Positions 1,933-35,538 of a DNA stretch of 64,000 bases are shown here, piece by piece. Each line of letters begins with the position of its first letter. The first letter of the stretch is position 1. The stretch covers positions 4,784 through 68,783 of the forward strand of contig JAAYJE010000022.1 in assembly GCA_012523095.1 (NCBI GenBank). The letters are read 5' to 3'. A program made the position numbers and the translations under genes. This DNA is from Actinomycetota bacterium (GTDB lineage: Bacteria; Actinomycetota; Thermoleophilia; RBG-16-64-13). The notes beneath the pieces are model-generated. The model did no database searches and was not told the origin of the DNA. It was given only the letters and a program-made list of their open reading frames with translations.

Positions 1933-2883
1933 CTACCGGCTGTAGAAGAGCGACGGCCAGTATTCGATGGCCTCTGAGCCGGCCGATACAAGTGTGCCGG
2001 CCTGTCCTTCGATGATGGCCGCGGCATCCTCCAAGGCGCCGATGCCCGCTCGACCGCCGGTAGCCGTGACGAAGTCACAGGCCGCTTCCACCTTAGGTCC
2101 CATCGATCCGGTCGCGAACCTGAGTGGCTCCAGTGCTTCGGGAGATGCCCTGCGGATGGCGCGCGAATCCGACGCGCCCCAATCCTCCCATACCGCCACG
2201 GCGTCGGTCAGCATCAGGAAGATGTCGACCCGGAGGGACTTCGCCAACAGGGCACTCGCGTAGTCCTTGTCTATCACGGCCTCGACACCCACGAGTGCTC
2301 CGCCCGGGGTCGGCATGGTAGGAATACCTCCTCCCCCCACGCAGATCACTGTCACCCCGCACTCCACGAGCCGCTCCACCGCTTTGATCTCGAGGATCCG
2401 CTTGGGCTTCGGCGACGGCACCAACCTGCGGTACCTGCCGTTGTCGGGTCCCATGGTCCACCCGTGCTCGCGCGCAAGACGCTCCGCTTCCTTCTGCGAA
2501 TACTGAGGCCCGATAGGCTTGGTGGGGTCCTGGAAAGCCGGATCGGCGGGGTCCACCTCCACCTGAGTGAGTATGGTGGCCAGGGGCATGTCGTCAGGGA
2601 GGGTGTTGCCCAGCTCCTGCTCGATCATGTAGCCGATCATCCCCTCCGACTGAGCCCCCAGCACATCGAGCGTGAAGGACCCCGCGCCTGCGTAGGTCGC
2701 GGCCGTCAAGGCGAGCAGGCCGACCTGTGGACCGTTACCGTGGGTGATGATGAGACTGTGCTCACGTGCGAGCGGAGCCAGCGCCCTGACCGCGATCTTG
2801 ACGTTCTCGCGCTGGTTGTGCGCGGTGAGCGGCTCCTCCCGTTTGAGAAGGGCGTTACCCCCGAGCGCTGCTACGATCCTCAT
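1933..2883 (-). CDS. arcC: Carbamate kinase
   Basis: N-terminus [12 protein letters not shown] and overall carbamate kinase-like sequence, 316 aa. Confidence 0.85.
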
Positions 2884-2901
2884 GGCGACAACGGACCCAC
2901 G

Positions 2902-3474
2902 CTATGCTCCGGCGCTTTTTCGCTTGGCTTTCTTGCCCCGCATGCTTCCGCGTGCAGTCAGCAGGGCGGACATCAGCTGAGCGGGCTCCCGGGTGCCGAT
3001 GAGCACCCGCCTGCCATCGCTCATGACCAGCTGGATGCCCTGATTGCCCGACGCGTTATATGCGCGTCCGTTCTTCAGCGAAGTCCGGATACCCCAGCCT
3101 CCATATTCGCGCAGTGCCGAGTACCGACGCGGCTCAGCGTCCGTGATGTCGGACAGGAGGATCTTCGCCCACCTGAACGGGTATACCCTCACTCTGAGGA
3201 CTCCTGGATGGACCTCCGTGATCATTCTCGCCATCACAGCGAAGAAAGGGAACCCAAAGCCGAACACAAGGCCGAGGGTCCATGCCACCCAATCAGGGAC
3301 GGGCTGCTCACCCAGAGGGTTCTTGAGCATTATCTGCTGGATGAACTGGTACCACACCAGCACTGTGACGATCAGGATAGGAACGTAAAAATACCATTGC
3401 CTGAATCTCTGCACCTCACGGTACAGAGGCTGTGCATCCAGACCGACCATCCCCTCGATCTCCTTGCCGTCCAT
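2902..3474 (-). CDS. Membrane protein with two TM helices and a bacterial PH-like domain (hypothetical)
   Basis: ORF 2902..3531. The start was moved to internal MDGKEIEG to avoid overlapping the divergent MFS gene. It has two hydrophobic helices followed by a PH-like soluble domain. Confidence 0.45.
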   Translation of the reverse strand: MDGKEIEGMVGLDAQPLYREVQRFRQWYFYVPILIVTVLVWYQFIQQIMLKNPLGEQPVPDWVAWTLGLVFGFGFPFFAVMARMITEVHPGVLRVRVYPFRWAKILLSDITDAEPRRYSALREYGGWGIRTSLKNGRAYNASGNQGIQLVMSDGRRVLIGTREPAQLMSALLTARGSMRGKKAKRKSAGA

Positions 3475-3525
3475 GCCGACCTCGCTGCCGTCATTTGGGG
3501 AGCACTCATAGTACACTAACCGGCA

Positions 3526-8248: not shown

Positions 8249-8408
8249 CATGGCGACCGGTGGACCGACTCCACCCCTCCGCCCGTTCGCCGGGGAAAAA
8301 TACCATGTATCGACCAAGCCGTGTACCGACCACATGTACGAAGGGCTGTCCGGCGGTCTCCTCACCGCCACCGCGATGGCGCCCAGGCCTACGTGGCCGG
8401 CCGGCCCC

Positions 8409-9359
8409 TCAACCCCCCACAGCCGCGCGGACCATGTCCAAGGTCCCGGCGGAGCGCAACTTCTCGTTCTTGTGGGCTATGAATCCGGCGTATTCGGCCA
8501 TGAAGACCTTGCCGGGGTCGCGCAGGTCGAACTTCTCAGGGTTATCACGGAAGAACTCCCGATGGACCCGGGTCCACACCAGACGCCCGTCGGTGTCGAT
8601 GTTCACCTTGGTCACGCCCAGGGGGACCGCCTTCGCGAACTCCTCCTCATCCACACCCTTGGCGCCCTTGAGGGCCCCGCCGGCATCATTGATACGCCGG
8701 ACTTCCTCCTGAGGCACCGACGAGGATCCGTGCATCACCAGAGGGAACCCTGGGAGACGCTTCTGGATCTCCGCGACCACCTCGAGATGCAGCCCTTGAT
8801 GTCCGGTGAACTTGTAGGCTCCGTGGCTGGTGCCGATGGCGACCGCAAGACTGTCGCAGCCCGTTTCACGCACGAACACCTCGGCTTCGGCCGGGTCGGT
8901 GAGATGCGCGTTCTTCTCGTCCACCTGCACGTGCTCCTCCACCCCGCCCAACCGACCCAGTTCCGCCTCCACGGAGACGCCCCGAGCGTGGGCGGCCTCG
9001 ACCACCTGTCGCGTGATGCGGATGTTCTCCTCGAGGGGTTCCTGAGAAGCGTCGATCATCACCGACGAGTAGAACCCGCTCTCCACACAGTCGAGCGCCG
9101 TGTCAAGGTCGCCGTGGTCCAGATGAACGGCGAACACGGCCTCGGGGAACATCTCGTCGGCGGCCTTGATCATGGCCTCCAACATGCGCTTGTCGGCGTA
9201 GGACCGCGCGCCTTTGGAGATCTGGAGGATGAAGGGCGCCCGGGAGTCGAGATTGCCCCGGAACAGCCCCAAGGTCTGCTCCATGTTGTTGATGTTGTAG
9301 GCCCCCACGGCGAACCTGCCGTAGGCGACTTTGAAGAGCTCCTCAGTGGTGACGATCAT
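8409..9359 (-). CDS. fba: Fructose-bisphosphate aldolase class II
   Basis: 316 aa with class II FBA motifs (HLDHG, metal-binding His residues). Confidence 0.93.
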   Translation of the reverse strand: MIVTTEELFKVAYGRFAVGAYNINNMEQTLGLFRGNLDSRAPFILQISKGARSYADKRMLEAMIKAADEMFPEAVFAVHLDHGDLDTALDCVESGFYSSVMIDASQEPLEENIRITRQVVEAAHARGVSVEAELGRLGGVEEHVQVDEKNAHLTDPAEAEVFVRETGCDSLAVAIGTSHGAYKFTGHQGLHLEVVAEIQKRLPGFPLVMHGSSSVPQEEVRRINDAGGALKGAKGVDEEEFAKAVPLGVTKVNIDTDGRLVWTRVHREFFRDNPEKFDLRDPGKVFMAEYAGFIAHKNEKLRSAGTLDMVRAAVGG

Positions 9360-9639
9360 TTAGCGCTCCCATCAGTTCCGAACAGTATCATCCAGTCTTG
9401 GCGGCGCCCCAGTGGGCTCCGGCTTCCTCTTCCATCTTCCGGACGGTCGTAGCCGTATGGGCGCAGACCGCTCATGACGCTCCTCCTCTCGTCTCGAGAG
9501 CCCCCTGAGCGGACCCGGCCCCGGCGATCCGAGAAGCTTCATGCTATGTGCCTCCCATACCCCCAGACCGCTGCGTTGACACGCGCCGCGGAGTACGGAG
9601 GACCTCACGTTCAGCATACCAGGCTGGGGAGACGCCGGC

Positions 9640-14463: not shown

Positions 14464-14830
14464 CTCAGGCCGGTCCCAGAGCCTCCGTGCCTTTCCAAAC
14501 CCCGATCTGTAGAAGCTCCCATACGATCACAAACCTTGTCTGACATCTGATCGTCCGATCCATACTTCAAGGTGGTCCGCCCGCAACTCACCCGACGCGG
14601 CACCTCCATCCGGACCCCCTCAGAGCCGGTGAGTGGCCCGATGTTCACGTGACCGCCCCGGCACAGGCAGCGCAGGCGTAGCACTTAGAGTCGCGGTTCA
14701 AAGTGCATTTTGAGCACGTGGAGCCGACCCGGGCGCAGGAGTGTTGTCCAAACGCTGTAGGCCTTCGCATGTCTCCATCGAACACCATATCATTGCGAAC
14801 TCCTTCACACCCTCTGATCGGGAACCGTTC

Positions 14831-16234
14831 ATGCAGGAGGAATCGCGACGCGCGCGCAGCGTGCGGCGCGCTCACAGGCGTCGGCGCATCATCGCCGGCG
14901 GTGTCTTCGCCATAATGGTCTTGAGCGCCGCCGGCTACGTCGTGCACGCGTCGACGACCGGAGATGATCCAACCGCCGACGGCACTGAAGCCGGCGGTTC
15001 CAACTTCAACTCGACCACGAGAGGCGATACGCCCGCCCTCACCGTCCCGGATACGTCCCCGGCGGGCAGCGCGGGCCCGACCACCACCAACGAAGCTGCA
15101 GCCTTTTCCGGGGCCATCGACTCGCCCCCCCAGGAACTCACCATCACGGGCAACCCCGAGTTCATCAAGCTCAAGATCACCCTGCAGGACGGTACCGTCT
15201 TGACGGGGAAAACACCTTTCGCGGAGCAGGTCCCAGGAGGCAACATCCATGTCGAGTTCACCAAGGCAGGCTACAACACCACGAGTCGAGACCTGACCCT
15301 CGACGGACCTACTACTCTGAAGGTCTGGCTGGATCTGGAAGGACAGCTCTACGAGAGCCTGGTCCGCTTCAAGTGCGGAGCCAACCCCAAACAGGTGGCC
15401 TTCACTCCCGACGGCGAGGAATTGTGGGTCTCCCTGTTGGGAGGCTACGGACTCGAGGTCTACGAGCCGACCACAGGCGTGAGGTTGGGTGGAGTCAAGC
15501 TTGGTGAGCACGGTGCGGTGGAGGTCGTCTTCACCCGTGACGGACGAACCGTCTACGCCAGCCAGATGGAGACCGCCGCCGTCTACGAGATAGATCGGGC
15601 CACCCGCGCCATCAAACGCAAGTTCGACACCGGCGGTGACTGGACCAAGGTGGTCCTGTTGTCTCCGGACGAGAAGACCCTGTGGGCCTCCAACTGGGTG
15701 AGCAACAACGTCTCCGAGATCGACCTCGCCACGGGCAAGGCGGCTACGCTCTTAAGGACGGGAGGGGCCATGAGACATATGGTGGACGATGCCGCTCGAG
15801 GCCTGCTCTACGTGGACGACATGTCTACCGACGAGGTGTACGTAGTGGACCTCGACACCGACAAGGCCTCTAAGTTGGCCGACACCGACCGGCGGCCCAA
15901 CACCATGGACCTATCTCCCGACGGCCTACTGCTCTACGTATCCAACCGGGGCAAGGACAACCCCAAGACCTACTACCTCCCCGGCCCCGAATGGGGCACC
16001 GTCCTCGCTCTCGATACGGCCACGGGCAGGATCCTCGACGCCATCGTGGGCCGCAACCAGTGCACAGGGCTGGACGTGTCGCCCGACGGCTCCCTCTTGG
16101 CCTTTTCGAACTTCCTCGACAACCACATCGAGGTCTTCCGCATCCCCAGTTACGAGACCCTGCTGGCCGGCGGCGGCGGCCGGGCCGAGCAGCGCTTTGA
16201 GGATCGCGTCAAGGACCAACACGTCCTCCGTTAA
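14831..16234 (+). CDS. Membrane-anchored YVTN-family beta-propeller repeat protein with S/T/P-rich linker
   Basis: The start was set at MQEESRR. It has an Arg-rich cytoplasmic N-terminus, one TM helix, a Thr/Pro/Ser-rich linker, then repeated beta-propeller blades (LSPDG, VSPDG motifs). Confidence 0.65.
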   Translation: MQEESRRARSVRRAHRRRRIIAGGVFAIMVLSAAGYVVHASTTGDDPTADGTEAGGSNFNSTTRGDTPALTVPDTSPAGSAGPTTTNEAAAFSGAIDSPPQELTITGNPEFIKLKITLQDGTVLTGKTPFAEQVPGGNIHVEFTKAGYNTTSRDLTLDGPTTLKVWLDLEGQLYESLVRFKCGANPKQVAFTPDGEELWVSLLGGYGLEVYEPTTGVRLGGVKLGEHGAVEVVFTRDGRTVYASQMETAAVYEIDRATRAIKRKFDTGGDWTKVVLLSPDEKTLWASNWVSNNVSEIDLATGKAATLLRTGGAMRHMVDDAARGLLYVDDMSTDEVYVVDLDTDKASKLADTDRRPNTMDLSPDGLLLYVSNRGKDNPKTYYLPGPEWGTVLALDTATGRILDAIVGRNQCTGLDVSPDGSLLAFSNFLDNHIEVFRIPSYETLLAGGGGRAEQRFEDRVKDQHVLR

Positions 16235-16243
16235 CGCCCTCCG

Positions 16244-17893
16244 TCAGCTCAGCGGTATCTGGTACCCGCGGTCGAGCAGTCTCGACCTCACGGTCTCGTA
16301 AGGGACCTCGCTCAATCCGACACCCAGCTCAGCGGCCGTGATCACCATCATGGCGGCCGCTGCGCCCATGTTCGCCCTGCAGTGCTCCATGCGCACCGCG
16401 GAACAGTATGCAGCACTGTCGGTGGAGACTGCCGTCGACACCAGAAGGGCCGGGTGGCCGGCGGCTATCAGAGCCTCCATGGGCATATAGACGTAGCGCG
16501 TCGTCTCGATATGGGTGGGGTAGAAGGCGTCATGCCGGTCGTACTCGCAATAACAACCCACGGCGACCGGCTGACGGAGTGCCACGGAGCGAAGATCGTC
16601 CACTGTGTAGGTGTCGAGACCAACCACCCTGGGACCTTCGCGCACATACAACTTCTGCGGGATGGTGGCGACCCCCACCCGTGCGTATCCATTCTCCTGC
16701 AGGTATCGGGCCCGGTTGATCGTCCACTGCAACACCTGCTTGCGTATGTCGCCTCGCTTGTCGGGCTCGAACACCCACTGGAAGGCCCAGCCGATATCCG
16801 GATGGTCACTCCACGACTCGTTCAGTTCCCGCTTGTTCTTAGGAAGAACGGCGATCTTCATAGTCCAGCTGTTCGCGAAAGCGGCGACGTTCTTCGCGGC
16901 GAAGGTGGTGCCCGCGAACGAAGCCGGGTCGTAGTTGGGGTGTCGGAGATCGGCGACACGGGCCGCCTTTCCGGAGGAATACACCTGGAGCGTCAGCAAA
17001 GCTGAGAAGCGCTGAGGAGCGGTGACCCACCCGTTGTCCGAGCTCGGATAGGCAGGTCTGTTGCCCAGAACGTCATTGTAGACGTCCTCAGCGCGTCCGA
17101 TACGATAGTCGGCGCCCAGCATGCGGGCTAGGTCGGCTTCCACGCTGGCGTCGATGAAGTACTTGGTTCTCAGTCGTAGATCGCCGGCCCCCTCCACGCT
17201 GATGTCCACGTAACGGCCGTCGGACCCGTCATGCGCGTCCAGCAGCTTGGCCGAGTAGAATTGCACGTTGGGCAGGTTTGAGCCGGAGACGTAAGACCAC
17301 AGGATCTTCGCCGCCACTTCAGGCTCGTAAGTGAAGCGGCCGGTGCCGTTGGCCGCCTTCAGGCCGTGCAGAGAGTAGTAGCGCATCACCGTCTGGCGCC
17401 ATTCGCCGTAGAAACCGCCCGTGACGTGGCCGGCGTTCCGCACATCCTCCACGCTCAGACCCTGCGCCAGCGGAGTCTCCAGGAGATTGCCGCACGATAT
17501 AAGGGCCACCCGCAGCTGGGGCGCCCCCAGCGCCATTTCGCGCACCGCCGCCAGGCCGGAGGTCTGAGTGGCGTAGACCACCACATCAACATCGACGATA
17601 GGAAGTGCCTTCCCCACGCCGGCGGGATCGGGATCGACCTCGGCGACAGAGGCATCCGTGCCTCCTCCAGCCGTTTCGTGGGCAGCAGCCGAGACTCCTG
17701 TAGGAGCCCCGTTCGCCTTCGCCTGGACGGGAGAAGGATCATCCGCAGACACAGGACCGACGAGAGCCTGAGCTGAGAGGCCTAGAAGAGCATCGGATCT
17801 AGCCAAGGCCTCGGACTTAGAAGAGACCAGAGGCACCATCACTAGACAGAGAACGAGACCCGCCACTATCACCAGACCCAGGCGGCGGACCAT
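16244..17893 (-). CDS. Secreted/membrane-anchored FAD-dependent-oxidoreductase-like protein (PF12831-like) with degenerate dinucleotide-binding motif
   Basis: ORF 16244..17962, with the start MVRRLG preferred. It has an N-terminal signal/TM and an Ala/Pro-rich linker. DVDVVVYATQTSGLAAV sits where GxGxxG is expected. Confidence 0.6.
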   Translation of the reverse strand: MVRRLGLVIVAGLVLCLVMVPLVSSKSEALARSDALLGLSAQALVGPVSADDPSPVQAKANGAPTGVSAAAHETAGGGTDASVAEVDPDPAGVGKALPIVDVDVVVYATQTSGLAAVREMALGAPQLRVALISCGNLLETPLAQGLSVEDVRNAGHVTGGFYGEWRQTVMRYYSLHGLKAANGTGRFTYEPEVAAKILWSYVSGSNLPNVQFYSAKLLDAHDGSDGRYVDISVEGAGDLRLRTKYFIDASVEADLARMLGADYRIGRAEDVYNDVLGNRPAYPSSDNGWVTAPQRFSALLTLQVYSSGKAARVADLRHPNYDPASFAGTTFAAKNVAAFANSWTMKIAVLPKNKRELNESWSDHPDIGWAFQWVFEPDKRGDIRKQVLQWTINRARYLQENGYARVGVATIPQKLYVREGPRVVGLDTYTVDDLRSVALRQPVAVGCYCEYDRHDAFYPTHIETTRYVYMPMEALIAAGHPALLVSTAVSTDSAAYCSAVRMEHCRANMGAAAAMMVITAAELGVGLSEVPYETVRSRLLDRGYQIPLS

Positions 17894-17924
17894 CCCGCCC
17901 TCGCCTTGGCCTAGGCGGGCTATT

Positions 17925-18389
17925 TTAGATACGACCTTCCTCACGCAGCCTCCTAGAGTCATTCAATACGGTGGCCGCGTGCCCCTTGGCGCCCACCCGT
18001 TGATAGGCTAACAGAACGTCTCCGTCCTTGCCGACGAGGACGGTATCACGCTCATGTGAACTCTCAGGTCCGCCCTTCAGCGTTCCGAAGGCCTGCCCGA
18101 TCGCCCTGTCTCGGTCGCTTACGAATGGGAACCGCAGATCGTATTTGTCCCGGAACTTCTGCAACCGGGCCACCGAGTCTACCGAAGCGCCGACTATCCT
18201 CACCCCCAGTGTCTCGAACTCCGGCACCAATCGGTTGAACTCAACCGCTTCCACTGTTCACCCCGGGGTCAGTGCCCGAGGAAAGAAGTACAGCACTACC
18301 GGTCCCGATTCGAGCAGTGCCCCGAGATCGACGTCACCGTCACTTCCGGACGCTACAAACAGCGGCGCTTTGTCACCTACCGCCAGCAT
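17925..18389 (-). CDS. BCP/PrxQ-type peroxiredoxin with in-frame TGA (candidate selenocysteine) at the peroxidatic Cys position
   Basis: ATG at 18389 (RBS GGAGGTG 6 nt upstream) encodes MLAVGDKAPLFVASG...VVLYFFPRALTPG. An in-frame TGA follows at 18260..18258, then TVEAVEFNRL... through to the stop at 17925. The ORF track shows only the part after the TGA (17925..18254). In Cys homologues this position is the catalytic C of the FYPKDDTPGC motif. Total 154 codons. Confidence 0.6.
18229..18250 (-). ncRNA. Candidate bacterial SECIS hairpin within the peroxiredoxin coding region
   Basis: mRNA AAGCGGUUGAGUUCAACCGAUU starts 8-11 nt after the UGA. The CGGUUGA/UCAACCG stem has a GU-containing apical loop, matching the spacing (about 11 nt) and loop features of E. 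coli fdhF-type SECIS elements. Confidence 0.4.
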
Positions 18390-18405
18390 CACTGCACCTC
18401 CTCGG

Positions 18406-18711
18406 TCACGCCTCTCTCCTACGCGGCTCAATAGGTCCGTGGATGCTCTCGTACTTCCTCAGGTTATCCGCCAGCGCCTCGACGATGTGCTTCATGTGAG
18501 CGGGGCCGGTCACCACCCGCGCGACCACCTGTCCACCCGGGCCCATGACCATGGCGAAGTCCATCACGAACTCACCGGCCGTATGATGGACCATCATGGT
18601 GTTGCAGTAGACGCCCCCTGCTATCGTCTCGGGTACCCGCAGCTTCAGTTCGCGCTGCTTGCGACCGCCGCCGCCGTTCCCCGGCGTCCTCTGCGGGTTC
18701 GTCGTCGCCAT
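18406..18711 (-). CDS. DUF3467-family protein (function unknown)
   Basis: 101 aa with the GGVY.N...EFVMDF pattern typical of DUF3467. An AGGAGGAGG RBS precedes it. Its stop is 16 nt upstream of the peroxiredoxin ATG. Confidence 0.6.
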   Translation of the reverse strand: MATTNPQRTPGNGGGGRKQRELKLRVPETIAGGVYCNTMMVHHTAGEFVMDFAMVMGPGGQVVARVVTGPAHMKHIVEALADNLRKYESIHGPIEPRRREA

Positions 18712-18731
18712 GATCCTCCTCCTAACCGGCG

Positions 18732-18747
18732 CCGGGAGGTCTCCCGG
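18732..18747. promoter_or_regulatory. Perfect 16-bp palindrome CCGGGAGGTCTCCCGG in the leader of the DUF3467-peroxiredoxin operon
   Basis: Seen directly in the sequence, ~20 bp upstream of the DUF3467 start codon. It is a candidate operator or RNA hairpin. Confidence 0.4.
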
Positions 18748-18863
18748 AACACGTACCGGCGTTCTTCGACGTCAGACTGTCGACATCCCTAACAAGTATT
18801 GGCTGCCATGGGGTCCTGGTCCTGCCTCAGGGATCGAACATTCGGACGGTCCACAGCGATACA

Positions 18864-20321
18864 TCAATCTTCTCCCCGAGCCCGCGCGAAGCGACGCGCC
18901 CCATCCGCCACCGTCAGCCGTACCCGTCCGGTCAGGGTCTCGCCCAAGAACGCGCAGTTGCGACTCTTGCCCCTCAGCGTCTCGGGCGCTACCCGCCACC
19001 GTTCCTCGAGGTCGACGACGCAGAAGTCGGCGGGAGCCCCCTCTTCCAAGCGGGGCTCAGCGAGCCCCAAGACCCTGCAGGGCGCTCCCGACATAGCCTC
19101 CACGAGCCGCTCCAAGGACAGCTGCCCCGTCAGGACCAAACCGGTGTGGAGCGCAGCAAAAGCCGTCTCCAGCCCGGTCGTGCCGAAGAGGGCGTCCTCG
19201 ATGGGCACCTCCTTCTCCTGTGGAGCATGAGGAGCGTGGTCGGTACCGATACAGTCGACGGTCCCGTCGGCAAGGGCCGCCACCAGGGCGGCACGGTCCT
19301 CGGCGGAACGAATGGGCGGGTTGACCTTCAGGTTCTGGTCGAAACCTGTCAGCAGCTCGTCGGTCAACAGAAGGTGGTGAGGGGTGGCCTCGACGGTGAT
19401 GGGAAGCCCCTCCGCTTTCGCCTGCCGGACCAGCCTCACGCTGGCGGCTGCAGACAGGTGCTGGAAGTGTATGAGAGGCACCGCGGCCGCCGGAGGGCCG
19501 CTCGAGACGGCGCCGCCACCCGAAGCCGCGGCGACACCCGCAACCACACCGCCCCTCGTACCCCCCTGCCGCTTCTGCTCCGCATCGACGTAACGGACGA
19601 TCTCCAAGTCGCGGGCCAACGGGCCCGACTCGCAGGCGGCGGGCACTCCCCGCAAACCCAGTCGCGCGCTCCACCTGCCCTCGTGCATGACCCCGTCGAC
19701 AGACAGGCTCCTGTTCTCCAGATGGATCAGTAACGGTCGTCCGATCCCGCGAGTGTAACGTAACGCCTGAAGCAATAGATCCGCATCGGCGATAGGCCTG
19801 CCGTCGTCGGAGAAGGCGACCACTCCGGCGTCCGCCAGTTCGCGTATCTCGGCCAGCTCTTCACCTTTGAGACCCCTGCTCACGGCCCCCACCTGGCCCA
19901 CCCGGACCACGGCCTCCCTGGCCGCTTCGTCCAGGATCCAGGCGGCCACCGGGCCACAGTCCGCCACAGGATCAGTGTTGGCCATGGCCACCACCGCCAC
20001 GTAACCACCCGCCGCAGCGGCAAGCGGACCCGAAGTCAGATCCTCCTTGTATTCATGACCGGGCGTACGCAGATGGGCATGAGGGTCGACAAACCCAGGA
20101 AAAACCCAACAGCCGGCCAGGTCATCGAGTATCTCCACTTTCTCGGGCGCTCTCAACGCGTCGCCCCACCCAGCGATCTTGCCCTCTTCCACGAGTAGAT
20201 CTCCCACGAGGTCGACACCGTGTTGGGGATCGAACAGATGCACGGAAGGAATGACGAAAGTCTCGGGGGGCGCCGCCCGGCAGGTGAGCTTGGGCGCGGA
20301 AGGACGCGTGCTGGTGTCCAT
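18864..20321 (-). CDS. pyrC: Dihydroorotase
   Basis: Metal-binding DPHAHLR and DHAPH motifs. The start was set at MDTSTRP, after an AAAGGA RBS. It contains a Gly/Ala-rich insertion. Confidence 0.88.
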   Translation of the reverse strand: MDTSTRPSAPKLTCRAAPPETFVIPSVHLFDPQHGVDLVGDLLVEEGKIAGWGDALRAPEKVEILDDLAGCWVFPGFVDPHAHLRTPGHEYKEDLTSGPLAAAAGGYVAVVAMANTDPVADCGPVAAWILDEAAREAVVRVGQVGAVSRGLKGEELAEIRELADAGVVAFSDDGRPIADADLLLQALRYTRGIGRPLLIHLENRSLSVDGVMHEGRWSARLGLRGVPAACESGPLARDLEIVRYVDAEQKRQGGTRGGVVAGVAAASGGGAVSSGPPAAAVPLIHFQHLSAAASVRLVRQAKAEGLPITVEATPHHLLLTDELLTGFDQNLKVNPPIRSAEDRAALVAALADGTVDCIGTDHAPHAPQEKEVPIEDALFGTTGLETAFAALHTGLVLTGQLSLERLVEAMSGAPCRVLGLAEPRLEEGAPADFCVVDLEERWRVAPETLRGKSRNCAFLGETLTGRVRLTVADGARRFARARGED

Positions 20322-20363
20322 CCAAATTCCTTTCGGTCTCACGGGACTCGTTTAAAGGTCGAC

Positions 20364-21240: not shown

Positions 21241-24200
21241 CTATCGCCCGTCTCCCGAACCATTCGCGAGGTCCTCGTCCTGCATGTCCCTCCCGGCCGG
21301 CAGGTTCAGGCCGGCGCTCTGACCGGTCACGTCGCGGGCGCCGGTGGCCGCCAGAGCCTCCTCGTCCACCACGCCGGGTTCGAACGGACAAGCTTCGGAG
21401 TAGACCATCTCCGCCTGCTGTTTGAGGACCTGCCACCGGGTACACACATGCCTCTGGGCCTTATCCCACAGCATGGACGCCGCTTCCGGATAGGCCTTCT
21501 TCAGCATGTTGTAGCGGTTCTCCGTGGGCACGAAATCGGCCACCGGCAGCATCGGTTCCTTAGAATCGATCTGCAGAGGGTTCTTGCCCTGAGTCGCCAA
21601 GCGGGGGTCGAACCGATAGCAGATCCACGAACCCGATTCCACAGCCAGCTTCTGCTGCTCGTAGCCCTTGCTCATGTCGATGCCCATGTTGATGCAGTGG
21701 CTGTAGGCGATGATGAGGCTGGGACCGTCGTAAGACTCAGCCTCCACGAATGCCCGCACAGTCTGCGAGTCGCTGTAGCCCATCGCCACCTGGGCCACGT
21801 AGATATTGCCGTAGGTCATGGCGATGGAGCCCAGGTCTTTCTTCCCGATGGTCTTGCCTCCGGCGGCGAACAGGGCCACCGAGCCCATCGGGGTGGCCTT
21901 GGACATCTGCCCCCCTGTGTTCGAATACATCTGGGTGTTCAGCACCAGCAGGTTGATGTTCCGTTGTGAAGCAAGGACGTGGTCCAGACCTCCGTAGCCT
22001 ATGTCGAAGGCCCAACCGTCGCCTCCCACCCCCCAGACGCTCTTCTTGACCAGGTGATCGGCCACTCCCAGCAACTGACCGTACCGATAGTCAGACCCAT
22101 CGTTCGCCAGAGCGTCCTGAAGCTTGGCCTTCACCTCGGCCACCCGGGTCCGTTGAGCAGCGATCTCGGCCTCGTCCTCCTGCTTGGACGACAGTAGCGC
22201 AGCCGCCAGGTCGGTTCCTATGATGTCGCGGAGCGAATCCACCAGCTCCCGGGCGAACTCCGCGTGTTTGTCCACAGTCAAGCGGAGGCCGTAACTGAAC
22301 TCCGCCGCGTCTTCGAACAGGGAGTTGTTCCATGTGGGCCCCCGGCCGTCTTCGTTGACGGAGTATGGAGTGGTGGGCAGATTACCCCCGTAGATGCTCG
22401 AACACCCGGTCGCATTGCCTATGAGCAGCCGATCGCCCACCAGCTGCGTGAGGAGCTTGATGTACGGGGTCTCGCCGCAGCCGGCGCAGGCCCCCGAGTA
22501 CTCGAAGAGCGGCCTCAGCAGCTGACTACCCTTGACGGTGTTCACACGCACGTCGGACCGGTCCGGGTCGGGTATGGTGAGGAAGAAGCGGTAGTTCTCC
22601 CGCTCCTGGCCGCGCAGTGGCGGCTGGAAGGCCATGTTGATGGCCCTCCGCTGCGGATCGGCCTTGTCTTTGCCGGGACAGATGTTGACGCACTCGGCGC
22701 AACCCGTGCAGTCCTCGGGCGCCACCTGGACCGTCCACTTCTTGCCCGCATGCTCCCTGCCCTTGGCGTCTACCGACTTGAAGGTAAGCGGGGCGCCCTC
22801 GAGGGTGTCCGCGGTATAGATCTTGGTGCGAATACTGGCGTGCGGACAGTGCAGCGAGCACTTGCCGCACTGTATGCAGAGTCCCGGCTCCCACACCGGG
22901 ATCTCGAGAGCGATGTTGCGCTTCTCCCACTTGGTCGTATCGACGGGCCAGACCCCGTCCTCGGGGATCTCGCTCACGGCCAGCTTGTCCCCGTCTCCCG
23001 CCATGATCCACGCAGTCACGTGTTGAACGAATCCGGGCGCTTCGCGAGGCACCAACCTCGGCTTCCGCTGGGTGCTGGAGACCGCGGCGGGCACGGTTAT
23101 CTCGTGCAGGTTGGCGAGAGACTGGTCGACGGCCATGTAGTTCATCGCCACGACTTTGTCGCCGCGCTTGCCGTAGGTCTTATTGATGGCGGCCTTGATG
23201 GCGGCGACGGCCTCATCCGGCGGGATGATGTTGGAGAGGTAGAAGAAGCAGGTCTGCATGATGGTGTTGATACGACCACCCATGCCGGTCTGCTTCGCCA
23301 CCTCATAGGCATTGATGGCATACACTTTCAAGCCGAGGTCGATGATCCGCTCTTGAGTCTCCATGGGCAGTCGGTCCCAGACCTCGTCCGCCGGGAAGGG
23401 AGCGTTGAGGAGGAAGGTGCCCCCGGGCGTCGCCGCCGAGAGGGTCTTGTAGCGCTCCAAGAACGCCCACACATGGCAGGCGATGAAGTCGGCCTTGTCC
23501 ACCAGGTACGCAGAGCGGATGGGCTGGGGACTGAGGCGTAGATGGCTCACGGTAAGGACTCCGGCTTTCTTGGAGTCGTATACGAAATAACCCTGCACGT
23601 AGTTGTCGGTGTCGTCGCCGATGATCTTGATGGAGTTCTTGTTGGCCCCCACGGTGCCGTCGCTGCCGAGACCGTAGAACAGAGCCCGGTAAACGCCGGC
23701 GGATTCGGTGGTGAAGGCCGAGTCGTACTCGAGACTGGTGTGAGTGACGTCATCGTTGATGCCGACGGTGAAGTGGTTCTTCGGCTCCGGCTTGGCCAGC
23801 TCGTCGAACACAGCCTTGACCATGGCCGGGGTGAACTCCTTGCTGGAGAGGCCGTAACGACCTCCGATGACCTTGGCCTTGAGGCCCGTCTCAGCCAGAG
23901 CGTTCACCACGTCAAGGTAGAGCGGTTCGCCCGCCGACCCCGGCTCCTTGGTGCGATCGAGCACCGCAAGTGTCCTCACCGTCTCTGGGAGGGCCGCCGC
24001 GAAATGCTCGACGCTGAAAGGCCGGTATAAGCGGACTTTCAGCACTCCCACCTTCTCCCCCCGGGCCGCCAGATGCTCGACGGTCTCGTGGGCCGTCTCC
24101 GCGCCCGAACCCATGAGCACGATCACACGTTCGGCGTCGGGGGCGCCGACGTAGTCGAAGAGGTGGTAACTCCGTCCGGTGAGCTTCGCGAACCGGTCCA

Positions 24201-24939
24201 TATACTCCTGCACCACCCCCGGGCAGGCGAGATAGAAGCGGTTGACGGTCTCGCGGCCCTGGAAGTACACGTCCGGGTTCTGGCTGGTGCCCCGCAGAGT
24301 AGGACGGTCGGGGGTCATGGCCCGCTCCCGGACGGCAAGCACGTATTCCTCGTCGATCATGGCCCGGAGTACATCGTCGGCCATGAATTCGAACTTCTGA
24401 ACCTCGTGGGAGGTGCGAAAGCCGTCGCAGAAGTGGATGAAGGGGACCCTCGACTTGAGTGTGGCGGCGGTGCCCACCAAAGCGAGATCGTGGGCCTCCT
24501 GCACGGAGTTCGACGCCAGGAGCGCGAACCCGGTCTGCCTCACCGCCATAACGTCTTGATGGTCGCCGAAGATGCTGAGCGCCTGCGCAGCGATGGATCG
24601 GGCCGTCACGTGCCAGCAGGTGGGGGTCAGCTCGCCGGCGATCTTATACATGGTGGGGATCATGAGTAGGAGCCCCTGGCTGGCGGTGAAGGTGGTACTG
24701 AGCGAACCGGCCTGGAGCGCTCCGTGCACGGCCGCCGCGGCTCCTCCCTCCGATTGCATCTCCACCACCACCGGCACCGACCCCCACAGATTAGGCCTAC
24801 CCGAGGCGCTCCACGCGTCGGCGTGTTCAGCGATCGGGCTGGACGGGGTGATCGGGTAGATGGCGATCACCTCGTTGATCTTGTGGGCCACGTGGGCAAT
24901 AGCTTCGGTGCCGTCCATCACTGCCGTGTTGCTTCTCAT
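21241..24939 (-). CDS. nifJ: Pyruvate:ferredoxin (flavodoxin) oxidoreductase
   Basis: 1232 aa single-chain PFOR. It has the N-terminal AIYPITPSS motif, two 4Fe-4S ferredoxin CxxCxxCxxxCP motifs, and a TPP-binding GDG region. Confidence 0.95.
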   Translation of the reverse strand: MRSNTAVMDGTEAIAHVAHKINEVIAIYPITPSSPIAEHADAWSASGRPNLWGSVPVVVEMQSEGGAAAAVHGALQAGSLSTTFTASQGLLLMIPTMYKIAGELTPTCWHVTARSIAAQALSIFGDHQDVMAVRQTGFALLASNSVQEAHDLALVGTAATLKSRVPFIHFCDGFRTSHEVQKFEFMADDVLRAMIDEEYVLAVRERAMTPDRPTLRGTSQNPDVYFQGRETVNRFYLACPGVVQEYMDRFAKLTGRSYHLFDYVGAPDAERVIVLMGSGAETAHETVEHLAARGEKVGVLKVRLYRPFSVEHFAAALPETVRTLAVLDRTKEPGSAGEPLYLDVVNALAETGLKAKVIGGRYGLSSKEFTPAMVKAVFDELAKPEPKNHFTVGINDDVTHTSLEYDSAFTTESAGVYRALFYGLGSDGTVGANKNSIKIIGDDTDNYVQGYFVYDSKKAGVLTVSHLRLSPQPIRSAYLVDKADFIACHVWAFLERYKTLSAATPGGTFLLNAPFPADEVWDRLPMETQERIIDLGLKVYAINAYEVAKQTGMGGRINTIMQTCFFYLSNIIPPDEAVAAIKAAINKTYGKRGDKVVAMNYMAVDQSLANLHEITVPAAVSSTQRKPRLVPREAPGFVQHVTAWIMAGDGDKLAVSEIPEDGVWPVDTTKWEKRNIALEIPVWEPGLCIQCGKCSLHCPHASIRTKIYTADTLEGAPLTFKSVDAKGREHAGKKWTVQVAPEDCTGCAECVNICPGKDKADPQRRAINMAFQPPLRGQERENYRFFLTIPDPDRSDVRVNTVKGSQLLRPLFEYSGACAGCGETPYIKLLTQLVGDRLLIGNATGCSSIYGGNLPTTPYSVNEDGRGPTWNNSLFEDAAEFSYGLRLTVDKHAEFARELVDSLRDIIGTDLAAALLSSKQEDEAEIAAQRTRVAEVKAKLQDALANDGSDYRYGQLLGVADHLVKKSVWGVGGDGWAFDIGYGGLDHVLASQRNINLLVLNTQMYSNTGGQMSKATPMGSVALFAAGGKTIGKKDLGSIAMTYGNIYVAQVAMGYSDSQTVRAFVEAESYDGPSLIIAYSHCINMGIDMSKGYEQQKLAVESGSWICYRFDPRLATQGKNPLQIDSKEPMLPVADFVPTENRYNMLKKAYPEAASMLWDKAQRHVCTRWQVLKQQAEMVYSEACPFEPGVVDEEALAATGARDVTGQSAGLNLPAGRDMQDEDLANGSGDGR

Positions 24940-33568: not shown

Positions 33569-34237
33569 TCAATCACGCGGGGCCTGGTCGCGTCTCGCCG
33601 TCTCTGGATCCTGAGCGGCCGCCAGTTCCGCGGCCCGTATGAACGCCCCACGGGTCGCCCTGTCCTCCAGAGCCGCCAGCCCGGCGATGGTGGTGCCGCC
33701 CGGAGAAGCCACCCGGTCCTTGAGATCGGCCGGCGATCCGATGTGGTCCTGCAACAGGAGGGCCGTAGCCATCAAGGTCTGACGCACAAACGCCCGGGCG
33801 ACGGATCTGGGCAGACCGGCTTCCACAGCGCCTTCCTCTATGCCCTCCAAGGCTACGGTGATGAAGCCCACCGACGACCGGCTCACCGCGGCGCATGCGG
33901 CCAGCAGGCTCTCGGGCGCTACCTGGACCTTGCCTGCCGTCTCCAACAGACGCACGACCCGCCCCGCGGCCTCAGGAGGCGCCCCTTCCTCGGCGCACAG
34001 GAGGACCGTTCCGGCGCCGGGTCCGGTTCCCGATCCAACAATCGCTCTGAACAGAGCCGGCTCCTCGCCGAGGATAGATCGCGCCTCCGCAAGCGTGGCG
34101 GCTTCATCTCCGTCCAGGACAACGGTCGAAACGCCCTCGCGGACCTCTCCCAACGACCCCACCACGTCTACGCCGCTACTCCGCGCCAAGGCGGCCGCCA
34201 GACGCCCTTCGCCCACCACACATATTTTCGCATCCAT
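33569..34237 (-). CDS. proC: Pyrroline-5-carboxylate reductase
   Basis: N-terminal NADP-binding fold and the C-terminal SPGGTTIAGLAALE P5CR signature. Short (222 aa). Confidence 0.65.
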   Translation of the reverse strand: MDAKICVVGEGRLAAALARSSGVDVVGSLGEVREGVSTVVLDGDEAATLAEARSILGEEPALFRAIVGSGTGPGAGTVLLCAEEGAPPEAAGRVVRLLETAGKVQVAPESLLAACAAVSRSSVGFITVALEGIEEGAVEAGLPRSVARAFVRQTLMATALLLQDHIGSPADLKDRVASPGGTTIAGLAALEDRATRGAFIRAAELAAAQDPETARRDQAPRD

Positions 34238-34277
34238 TGGAGCCCTAACTAGACGCTGCCATGACCCGCGCCGGCCT

Positions 34278-34841
34278 TCAGAATTGGTTGAAGAAGCCCT
34301 TCTCCAACAGACGCTGGCGTTCCTCGGCCGAGACCTCTACGTTCTTGGGAGTCAGCAGGAACACCTTGTCGGCCACGCGCTGCATACCTCCATTCAGCGC
34401 GTAGGTGAGCCCGCTCGCGAAGTCAATGAGTCTCTTGGCCAGATCAGTCTCACTCGCCTGCAGGTTCAGGATGACGGGGATGTCGCTCTTGAACTTGTCG
34501 GCGATGACCTGGGCGTCGTTGAAGTTCTTGGGCATGACCAAGTGCACACGGACCGGGGGCTGCTCCGCAGGAGTAGGGAGAGGTCTGAGAGAGCCACTCC
34601 GCTGCCCGGACGCAGATGCACGCTGGCCCCGATAGGGATCGTCCGCGAAGATGTCATCGAATTCCGTGGACTGTCGGCGACGGCTGCTCCGGTCGATCTT
34701 GCGCACGTTATGGCGGTCTCTCTCCCGATAGGTAGGCTCTATCTCTTGGGGGATGCCGAACGTGTCGTCCTCATAATCATCGTCCTCATCGGCGAGGCCG
34801 AAGTACACCAGGGTCTTGTGCCACAAGCCGCCGCCTGCCAT
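34278..34841 (-). CDS. sepF: Cell division protein SepF
   Basis: The conserved C-terminal SepF domain is present (PVILNL...LIDFASGLTYAL..G...V....FLL). Confidence 0.85.
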   Translation of the reverse strand: MAGGGLWHKTLVYFGLADEDDDYEDDTFGIPQEIEPTYRERDRHNVRKIDRSSRRRQSTEFDDIFADDPYRGQRASASGQRSGSLRPLPTPAEQPPVRVHLVMPKNFNDAQVIADKFKSDIPVILNLQASETDLAKRLIDFASGLTYALNGGMQRVADKVFLLTPKNVEVSAEERQRLLEKGFFNQF

Positions 34842-34851
34842 CCCATCCTCC

Positions 34852-35538
34852 TTATGCCTGTGAGAAGAGCGCGCTTCCCAACCTGACGATCGTGGCGCCT
34901 TCTTCGACAGCTACTTCGTAATCGTTGCTCATGCCCATGGACAGTTCGGACAGTTCGTAGCGGCCGATGAACACAGTAGCAAGACGGTCGCGAAGCTCAC
35001 GCAGGCCCCGGAAGATCGGCCTTGCCGATTCTGGGTCCTCCACCAATGGGGCCATGGTCATGAGCCCCACGAAGACGACCTTCCGATAGGCTGAAGCCTG
35101 CTCCAGAAAAGCTTCCGCGGCCTCCGGGAGAATACCATATTTGGTCTTTTCCCTGCTCACGTTGACCTCTAACAGCACCCGTATCTCCGATTCCGTCCGT
35201 TTGTCGAGCTCTTCCACCAAAGACGTCGACTCCACCGAGTGGATCATGGCCGCACACGGCAGGACCTGCCGGGCCTTCCGACGCTGCAGATGGCCTATGA
35301 AGTGGAACTCGAACACCTCGTTCCACCTCCGCCATTTTGCCTCCAACTCATCTGCCCTGTTCTCCCCCACCAGACGTATTCCTGCCCCCGAAAGAGCACC
35401 CATTTCTTCCACGTCTAGATACTTGGTAGCCACCAGAAGCCTGGGAGAGTCGACACGGCCGCTCCGTCGGCACGCATCGGCGATACGCCGCTCGACCTCC
35501 TCGAGACTGCCGCACAGCTTTTCGCAGTCGAGGTTCAC
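34852..35538 (-). CDS. yggS: YggS-family PLP homeostasis protein
   Basis: 228 aa alanine-racemase-N-like TIM barrel with the LVATKY PLP-lysine motif. Confidence 0.85.
   Translation of the reverse strand: MNLDCEKLCGSLEEVERRIADACRRSGRVDSPRLLVATKYLDVEEMGALSGAGIRLVGENRADELEAKWRRWNEVFEFHFIGHLQRRKARQVLPCAAMIHSVESTSLVEELDKRTESEIRVLLEVNVSREKTKYGILPEAAEAFLEQASAYRKVVFVGLMTMAPLVEDPESARPIFRGLRELRDRLATVFIGRYELSELSMGMSNDYEVAVEEGATIVRLGSALFSQA

Follow-up and report, generated by a model that had tools for sequence, protein, structure and literature searches.

The locus described here raises the question of whether three tightly packed genes, encoding in succession a DUF3467 protein, a peroxiredoxin (Prx) with a stop codon inside its reading frame and a PF12831-like protein, act as one functional unit or are a string of genes that happen to share a place in the genome. 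The three genes occupy positions 16244-18711, on the minus strand, of a 64,000-nucleotide (nt) stretch of DNA from the Actinomycetota bacterium assembly GCA_012523095.1 (contig JAAYJE010000022.1, positions 4,784-68,783; hereafter the window), and the genome loci nearest to the window come from Gaiellales/Thermoleophilia metagenome-assembled genomes (Actinomycetota). The original prediction, made from the letters of the window, was that the three proteins form an undescribed envelope peroxide/thiol redox module that includes a probable selenoperoxidase. The reading that we favour, and hold to be reasonably probable, is that the trio is a lineage-specific, probably co-transcribed string at the distal end of a pyrC(-carA) cluster in Gaiellales/Thermoleophilia, in which a selenocysteine (Sec)-containing Prx of the PrxQ type (Sec-PrxQ) is the one well-defined component. 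The loci of relatives which were compared with the window are labelled with L-numbers (L001, L003, L095 and so on).

The in-frame stop codon of prx is a TGA at codon 44, in the context PRALTPG-TGA-TVEAVEF, and tblastn aligned the full 154-residue protein across it in every relative. Nine lineages have TGA at codon 44 (the window, L001, L006, L007, L010, L011, L012, L096 and L097, with L004 and L005 counted with L006, and L002, L008 and L009 with L007), the Prx of the other eight being 61-89% identical to that of the window, and in L003 and L095 the codon is TGC, for cysteine (Cys). Cys was also found at this position in all seven of the full-length database homologs fetched (54-74% identity), and about 85 of the best 120 database matches were C-terminal fragments of 85-111 amino acids (aa), as would be expected of gene callers that stop at the UGA. 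TGA is also the commonest ordinary stop codon of the window, ending 27 of its 42 genes, and therefore any recoding would be site-specific, with no global reassignment of the codon. The TGA stands precisely at the Cys position of the Prx active-site motif PxxxTxxC (P37-R-A-L-T41-P-G-U44, U being Sec), and its retention in eight relatives, together with Cys in the homologs, indicates that Prx is very probably a selenoprotein with Sec inserted at UGA44, as the “probable selenoperoxidase” of the original prediction had it. Among prokaryotic selenoproteins, peroxiredoxins with the motif PxxxTxxU form a recognised family, and the Actinobacteria include Sec users (PMC13188914; PMC1794560). A scan for further in-frame TGA candidates in the window was non-discriminating at its GC content.

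With the stop read as Cys, Prx passed the curated cut-off of PF00578 (AhpC-TSA; 94.9 bits against 26) and also matched PF08534 (Redoxin), and its best NCBIfam model was that of the Bcp-type thiol peroxidases (NF006960; 79.5 bits, under the cut-off of 140). Like Bcp/PrxQ proteins of the E. coli Bcp type it is about 154 aa long and has both the TPGxT active-site segment and the conserved arginine (Arg) segment (the active-site Arg lying in HERDTVLVGKDG, which by eye aligns with RSTVLIGKDG of ordinary BCP homologs), but it differs from them in having Sec for Cys, in lacking a resolving Cys and in scoring below the cut-off of their model. There are no Cys residues in the 154-aa protein, whether at five residues beyond the peroxidatic position (CP+5), in helix 3 or elsewhere, and thus it belongs to the 1-Sec type. 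With the Sec-Prx family (PF00578, PxxxTxxU), of which PrxU from Eubacterium acidaminophilum is the prototype, it shares the AhpC/TSA fold with Sec at the peroxidatic position, the existence of Cys-bearing close homologs and a hairpin just 3′ of the UGA, but it is not a PrxU equivalog (NF040737; 27.5 bits against a cut-off of 270), being nearest to the Bcp/PrxQ models, strictly 1-Sec and carried by a Thermoleophilia/Gaiellales actinobacterium. By analogy with known peroxiredoxin chemistry, the Sec44 selenolate, positioned by Thr41 and by the conserved Arg of the ERDT segment, would attack hydrogen peroxide or an organic hydroperoxide to give a selenenic acid and, as a resolving Cys, like any other Cys, is missing from the protein, an external thiol reductant (a thioredoxin or mycoredoxin-type system) would have to recycle it. 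No export signal or hydrophobic segment was found in Prx (maximum 19-residue Kyte-Doolittle score 1.2), which is predicted to be cytoplasmic.

Recoding of UGA44 to Sec would be helped by a hairpin (GGUUG-AGUU-CAACC, 18233-18246) whose stem of 5-6 base pairs starts 11 nt after the codon and which, in the window, is extended by one C-G pair; its local fold has an energy of -8.1 kcal/mol and its apical loop, AGUU, contains GU. In bacterial Sec insertion sequence (SECIS) elements some 16 nt or more separate the UGA from the apical loop, which has G and U in it, and the geometry of the hairpin fits these features. Eight of the nine Sec lineages have the same hairpin DNA, GGTTGAGTTCAACC, invariant even at synonymous sites, and in the ninth an A-to-G change keeps the pairing as a G-U wobble. 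The shared sequence includes a GTT valine codon, which is rare in a genome with a third-position GC of about 75-80%. The two Cys forms (L003 and L095) differ at the hairpin, one by a mismatch and the other by a double change that preserves pairing.

The features of the locus are collected in the table.

Table. Features of the DUF3467-Prx-PF12831 locus and its immediate neighbours, in window positions.
Feature	Position	Strand	Basis
DUF3467 gene, 101 aa, product predicted cytoplasmic	18406..18711	-	PF11950 E 2.7e-18
PrxQ/BCP-type peroxiredoxin gene, 154 codons, read through in-frame UGA	17925..18389	-	PF00578 E 4.4e-27, PF08534 E 4.6e-19
UGA codon 44, very probably read as Sec at peroxidatic position (PRALTPG-U-T)	18258..18260	-	TGA/TGC comparison among relatives
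Bacterial SECIS (bSECIS)-like hairpin, C-GGUUG-AGUU-CAACC-G	18232..18247	-	local fold, conservation
PF12831-like GR2-fold protein gene, ~566 aa from GTG 17944	16244..17944	-	PF12831 E 3.5e-36
Dihydroorotase (pyrC), upstream neighbour	18864..20342	-	TIGR00857 351 bits, above cut-off
Transmembrane (TM)-anchored PEGA + YncE/YVTN-type beta-propeller, convergent neighbour, separate transcription unit	14741..16234	+	domain matches, hydrophobicity

Gene positions and domain matches agree with the original prediction of three minus-strand genes, separated by gaps of 16 and about 31 nt, on which a membrane-anchored YVTN propeller gene converges. The 16 nt between the DUF3467 stop and the prx ATG contain a GGAGG ribosome-binding site, and the sequence before the DUF3467 ATG is GGAGGAGG. 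The 31 nt run from the prx stop (17925-17927) to the ATG at 17893, which is one of three start candidates for the third gene (ATG 17962, GTG 17944 and ATG 17893). GTG 17944 is the more likely start because it is preceded by GGAGG, because the basic N-terminal segment that it adds, MRKVVSKIARLG, is conserved in homologs, and because it reproduces a 20-nt overlap with prx which is called in four relatives; this overlap suggests translational coupling of the two genes. The 16-nt gap and the conserved 20-nt overlap make it probable that the three genes are co-transcribed, as had been proposed, and promoter and terminator consensus scans of the minus strand from 16244 to 18863 found none. Tight packing as such is nothing special to the trio because the median same-strand gap across the window is itself 16 nt (35 nt or less at 21 of 35 junctions).

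The order DUF3467-Prx(Sec)-PF12831 was found in the window, L001, L004-L006, L007-L009 (with L002), L010, L011, L096 and L097, and this arrangement recurs in at least eight diverged lineages, all of one clade. In L003 a Prx(Cys) gene is followed by a PF12831 gene, and this locus probably carries the full trio, since a 108-aa DUF3467 protein (P0010) comes from a contig of equal length (1609 bp). In six lineages the trio comes directly after pyrC-carA, where pyrC and carA overlap and the gap between carA and the DUF3467 gene is 9 nt, and as pyrC-carA lies directly upstream in most relatives, the trio is better described as the end piece of an extended housekeeping string than as a unit of its own. 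Genes further out are likewise conserved (OsmC, YgjP, the convergent propeller and an amino-acid permease), which makes conservation of the trio inseparable from the synteny of the whole region; the propeller is syntenic in most relatives, with glyoxalase genes in its place in L011 and L097. Of 11 Prx-bearing lineages, 10 have the DUF3467 and prx genes side by side, in most of them 15-37 nt apart; in L004 the distance is 94 nt, and in L095 the two genes overlap by 17 nt. The trio also comes apart: in L095 the PF12831 gene is missing and the propeller follows pyrC-DUF3467-Prx(Cys), L012 has carA-Prx(Sec)-PF12831 with no DUF3467 gene, and four loci of unrelated context (L013, L014, L098 and L099) have a PF12831 homolog (50-58% identity) with neither of the other two. 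The three genes are thus linked by probable co-transcription and by synteny within their clade, and a single biochemical module is unsupported.

The DUF3467 protein passed the PF11950 cut-off (66.2 bits against 25) and shares with the family the conserved N, H, E, F, D, R, P and H positions, of which N37, F48 and P70 were invariant in our alignment and H43, E47, D51, R65 and H72 nearly so. The one Cys of the window protein is not conserved, and the protein is therefore not expected to be a thiol redox partner. No signal peptide or hydrophobic segment was found in it (maximum 19-residue Kyte-Doolittle score 1.2) and it is likely to be cytoplasmic. An AlphaFold2 model of moderate confidence (mean predicted local distance difference test, pLDDT, 65) shows three strands in a sheet and then a long helix (beta-beta-beta-alpha); neither a Foldseek search of the PDB with this model (threshold E 0.001) nor a hidden Markov model (HMM) search of PDB sequences gave a match. 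A likeness to SecB was considered and rejected, as hhalign against the E. coli SecB sequence gave a probability of 0.1%, and literature searches on DUF3467 and PF12831 yielded nothing informative. The family is large (1,237 representatives of 50% clusters). Many of its members are proteins of 190-260 aa with two DUF3467 domains in tandem, which suggests that a protein with one such domain may work as a dimer.

The neighbourhoods of DUF3467 genes outside the clade were sampled at 80 metagenome loci of one other subclade, with at most 4 kb on each side and many contigs shorter than this, and no Prx or PF12831 homolog was found near DUF3467 at any of the 80. At the 52 usable loci the 79 immediate neighbours fell into 76 Pfam families (54 of the 79 were singletons on clustering), and AhpC-TSA and Redoxin were absent among the top neighbour families. 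The adjacency to Prx seen at the window locus is therefore absent from the other clade sampled, and no conserved association was found beyond the immediate clade; the original prediction had taken the lack of a DUF3467-redox association across genomes as grounds for giving up the module, and in the one subclade sampled outside the clade that association was lacking. MobA and FdhD adjoin several of the DUF3467 loci, but were rejected as partners as four of the MobA loci are one lineage counted repeatedly.

The third protein matched PF12831 over the whole profile (positions 1-416 of 416) at 125.8 bits against a cut-off of 27. With its AlphaFold2 model (pLDDT 87, predicted template modelling score, pTM, 0.82), a Foldseek search of the PDB gave generic FAD-fold matches at probability 1.0, among them FrdA/SdhA (E about 1e-9, template modelling score about 0.3) and flavocytochrome c3, and both results place it with the FrdA/SdhA-like GR2 flavoprotein fold. 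Its sequence has no close solved structure (the best PDB HMM match was at E 0.02 and covered the N-terminal part only) and NCBIfam has no model for it. It carries IDAS...D and C-terminal SxVRME...G(A)AAA segments, which we take to be typical of the PF12831 family. It differs from other PF12831/GR2 enzymes in an N-terminal membrane anchor, a disordered linker and an x-T-Q-T-S-G motif at the dinucleotide-binding site, this last being shared by its whole subfamily. GxGxxG is absent from this site, and Y-A-T-Q-T-S-G stands in its place; the AxQxxG seen there in the original prediction is accordingly found as A-T-Q-T-S-G, and it is a family-wide trait. In an alignment of 56 homologs (44-90% identity), Q111 is at least 90% conserved (with Thr in one), T112, S113 and G114 are invariant, and the first position of the motif varies between G, A and S. 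In this FAD fold the residue after strand 2 is usually acidic; by our own reading of the alignment it appears to be a conserved Ser here. Flavin binding is uncertain because Gln replaces the central Gly of GxGxxG, and the protein is evidently under strong selection as 70 columns are invariant across the 56 homologs.

The N-terminal hydrophobic helix of this protein (maximum 19-residue Kyte-Doolittle score 2.96, with basic residues before it, residues 2-24 in the model) agrees with the signal anchor first proposed. It is followed by a disordered linker of about 65 residues and then by the folded domain, with pLDDT above 90, and the protein is thus predicted to be N-terminally anchored and extracytoplasmic. 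Tat export was considered for it and rejected, as the N-terminal RR pair is not conserved in homologs. A Cys lies mid-way in the hydrophobic helix (L-C-L/F; about 17830-17880 of the window) and is conserved in many close homologs, with no fit to a lipobox. Among the homologs elsewhere, that of L097 (6441-7800) is called as pieces of 364 and 108 aa at a locus where pyrC and carA are broken up too, and which is either a poor assembly or decaying. In L098 (1840-6563) a 58%-identical homolog follows an extracytoplasmic function (ECF) sigma factor gene and two unannotated genes, which hints at envelope-stress regulation of the family in that lineage, and in L099 (5001-10767) a 52%-identical homolog adjoins a molybdopterin oxidoreductase gene and a second PF12831 gene with a more canonical FAD fold.

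Several of our results weigh against reading the trio as a gene string with a Sec-PrxQ as its defined component. None of selA, selB, selC and selD lies in the 64-kb window, with no matching family among the 36 open reading frames (ORFs) scanned, and the window contains no tRNAs at all, hence no tRNA-Sec (selC). RNAalifold found no covariation in the hairpin among seven Sec forms and shifted the consensus structure off the obvious hairpin, the local fold energy of a 73-nt stretch was no better than that of shuffled sequence (z = 0.6), and Rfam gave no SECIS or other relevant family, either in the window at the gathering threshold or at the locus at E up to 10. The hairpin also overlaps the conserved peptide AVEFN, and its conservation is thus partly explained by amino-acid constraint. 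The lack of Sec machinery within the window and the splitting of prx by gene callers everywhere would suit a TGA that is a true stop, whether in a pseudogene, a split gene or an assembly error, but this is extremely improbable given that the codon is TGA in nine independent assemblies with the protein conserved on both sides of it, that it falls exactly on the catalytic Cys and that Cys-bearing homologs exist. As regards the gene string, the DUF3467-Prx adjacency outlives both the change from Sec to Cys and the loss of the PF12831 gene (L095), and it could be a real functional pairing; the sample from outside the clade was confined to one subclade and to short flanks. A dedicated two-protein unit, with DUF3467 as adaptor or chaperone of a 1-Sec/1-Cys Prx and the PF12831 gene as an add-on, would account for this persistence and for adjacency in all but one of the Prx-bearing lineages, but we judge it unlikely because L012 has the Sec-Prx with no DUF3467, the DUF3467 gene is joined just as tightly to carA (9 nt in six relatives), such adjacency is not found at the 80 loci of the other clade, and DUF3467 lacks both a conserved Cys and a fold match that would be informative.

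The conserved 20-nt overlap can instead be read as pairing prx with the third gene, such that an outside PF12831 flavin oxidase releases hydrogen peroxide from which the coupled Sec-Prx shields the cytoplasm, DUF3467 being a bystander. The fold is of the GR2 FAD-oxidoreductase type and the 70 invariant columns imply a working site, but the central Gly of GxGxxG is Gln in at least 90% of the 56 homologs, the residue after strand 2 that is usually acidic appears (on our reading and from general knowledge of the fold) to be Ser, and the two genes part company in both directions, PF12831 occurring without Prx in four contexts and Prx without PF12831 in L095, so that this oxidase-peroxidase pairing is also rather improbable. 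The reading that all three proteins make up one undescribed envelope peroxide/thiol redox module would fit with genes which are tight or overlapping and kept as a trio in at least eight lineages, and with the redox-related families of two of the three proteins. However, only the third protein is expected to lie outside, Prx and DUF3467 having no export signal, DUF3467 has no conserved Cys, the parts occur separately (L012, L095, L013, L014, L098 and L099), DUF3467 loci elsewhere have no Prx or PF12831 neighbours and the whole surrounding region is syntenic, so that conservation of the trio is non-specific; we therefore regard this part of the original prediction as very unlikely to hold.

The co-transcribed string with a Sec-PrxQ thus remains the reading that we prefer, and its Sec-PrxQ adds to a known selenoprotein family. 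In public assemblies prx is mis-annotated as fragments of 43 and 85-109 aa, and reading the two as one selenoprotein corrects the annotation. A strictly 1-Sec PrxQ would extend the selenoproteome of an actinobacterial class that is uncultured and abundant in the environment, and would imply Sec decoding by these organisms, while the Sec and Cys forms of Prx within one clade provide a natural series for Sec/Cys exchange. With the Gln-for-Gly PF12831 subfamily there is a well-delimited case in which to ask if this fold can function without FAD being bound in the canonical way. A redox module of three parts would have been of greater interest, but was not borne out by the evidence. More speculatively, in Thermoleophilia DUF3467 might be the Cys-free partner of a 1-Sec/1-Cys PrxQ, the pair handling an oxidant by-product of the coupled extracytoplasmic PF12831 enzyme of the TQTSG type; we think this quite improbable, but if true it would amount to a peroxide-handling system of a new kind, and DUF3467 would have gained its first function.

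The window as a whole is core-genome DNA and almost entirely one-stranded, its genes running from a dcw cluster (mraW, ftsI, mur ligases, ftsW, murB, ftsZ) through divIVA and rluD, then transketolase and transaldolase, to pyrR, pyrB, pyruvate:ferredoxin oxidoreductase (PFOR), a YgjP-like peptidase and pyrC, after which the trio follows. The genes for the 1232-aa PFOR and the YgjP-like peptidase (21241-24939) lie between pyrB and pyrC, an insertion which breaks the usual pyrR-pyrB-pyrC order and is also present in L007 and L096. carA stands between pyrC and the DUF3467 gene in L004-L006, L010, L011, L096 and L097; the window, L007-L009 and L095 lack it, and carB follows carA in none of these loci. 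A gene of the OsmC family (organic hydroperoxide reductase-like) lies upstream of YgjP-pyrC in L010, L011, L012, L095 and L096 and is absent there in the window. Three long ORFs of the window (2464-3519, 8250-9452 and 33840-34886) have no Pfam match and a reduced third-position GC (0.64-0.67), and these may be shadow ORFs rather than genes.

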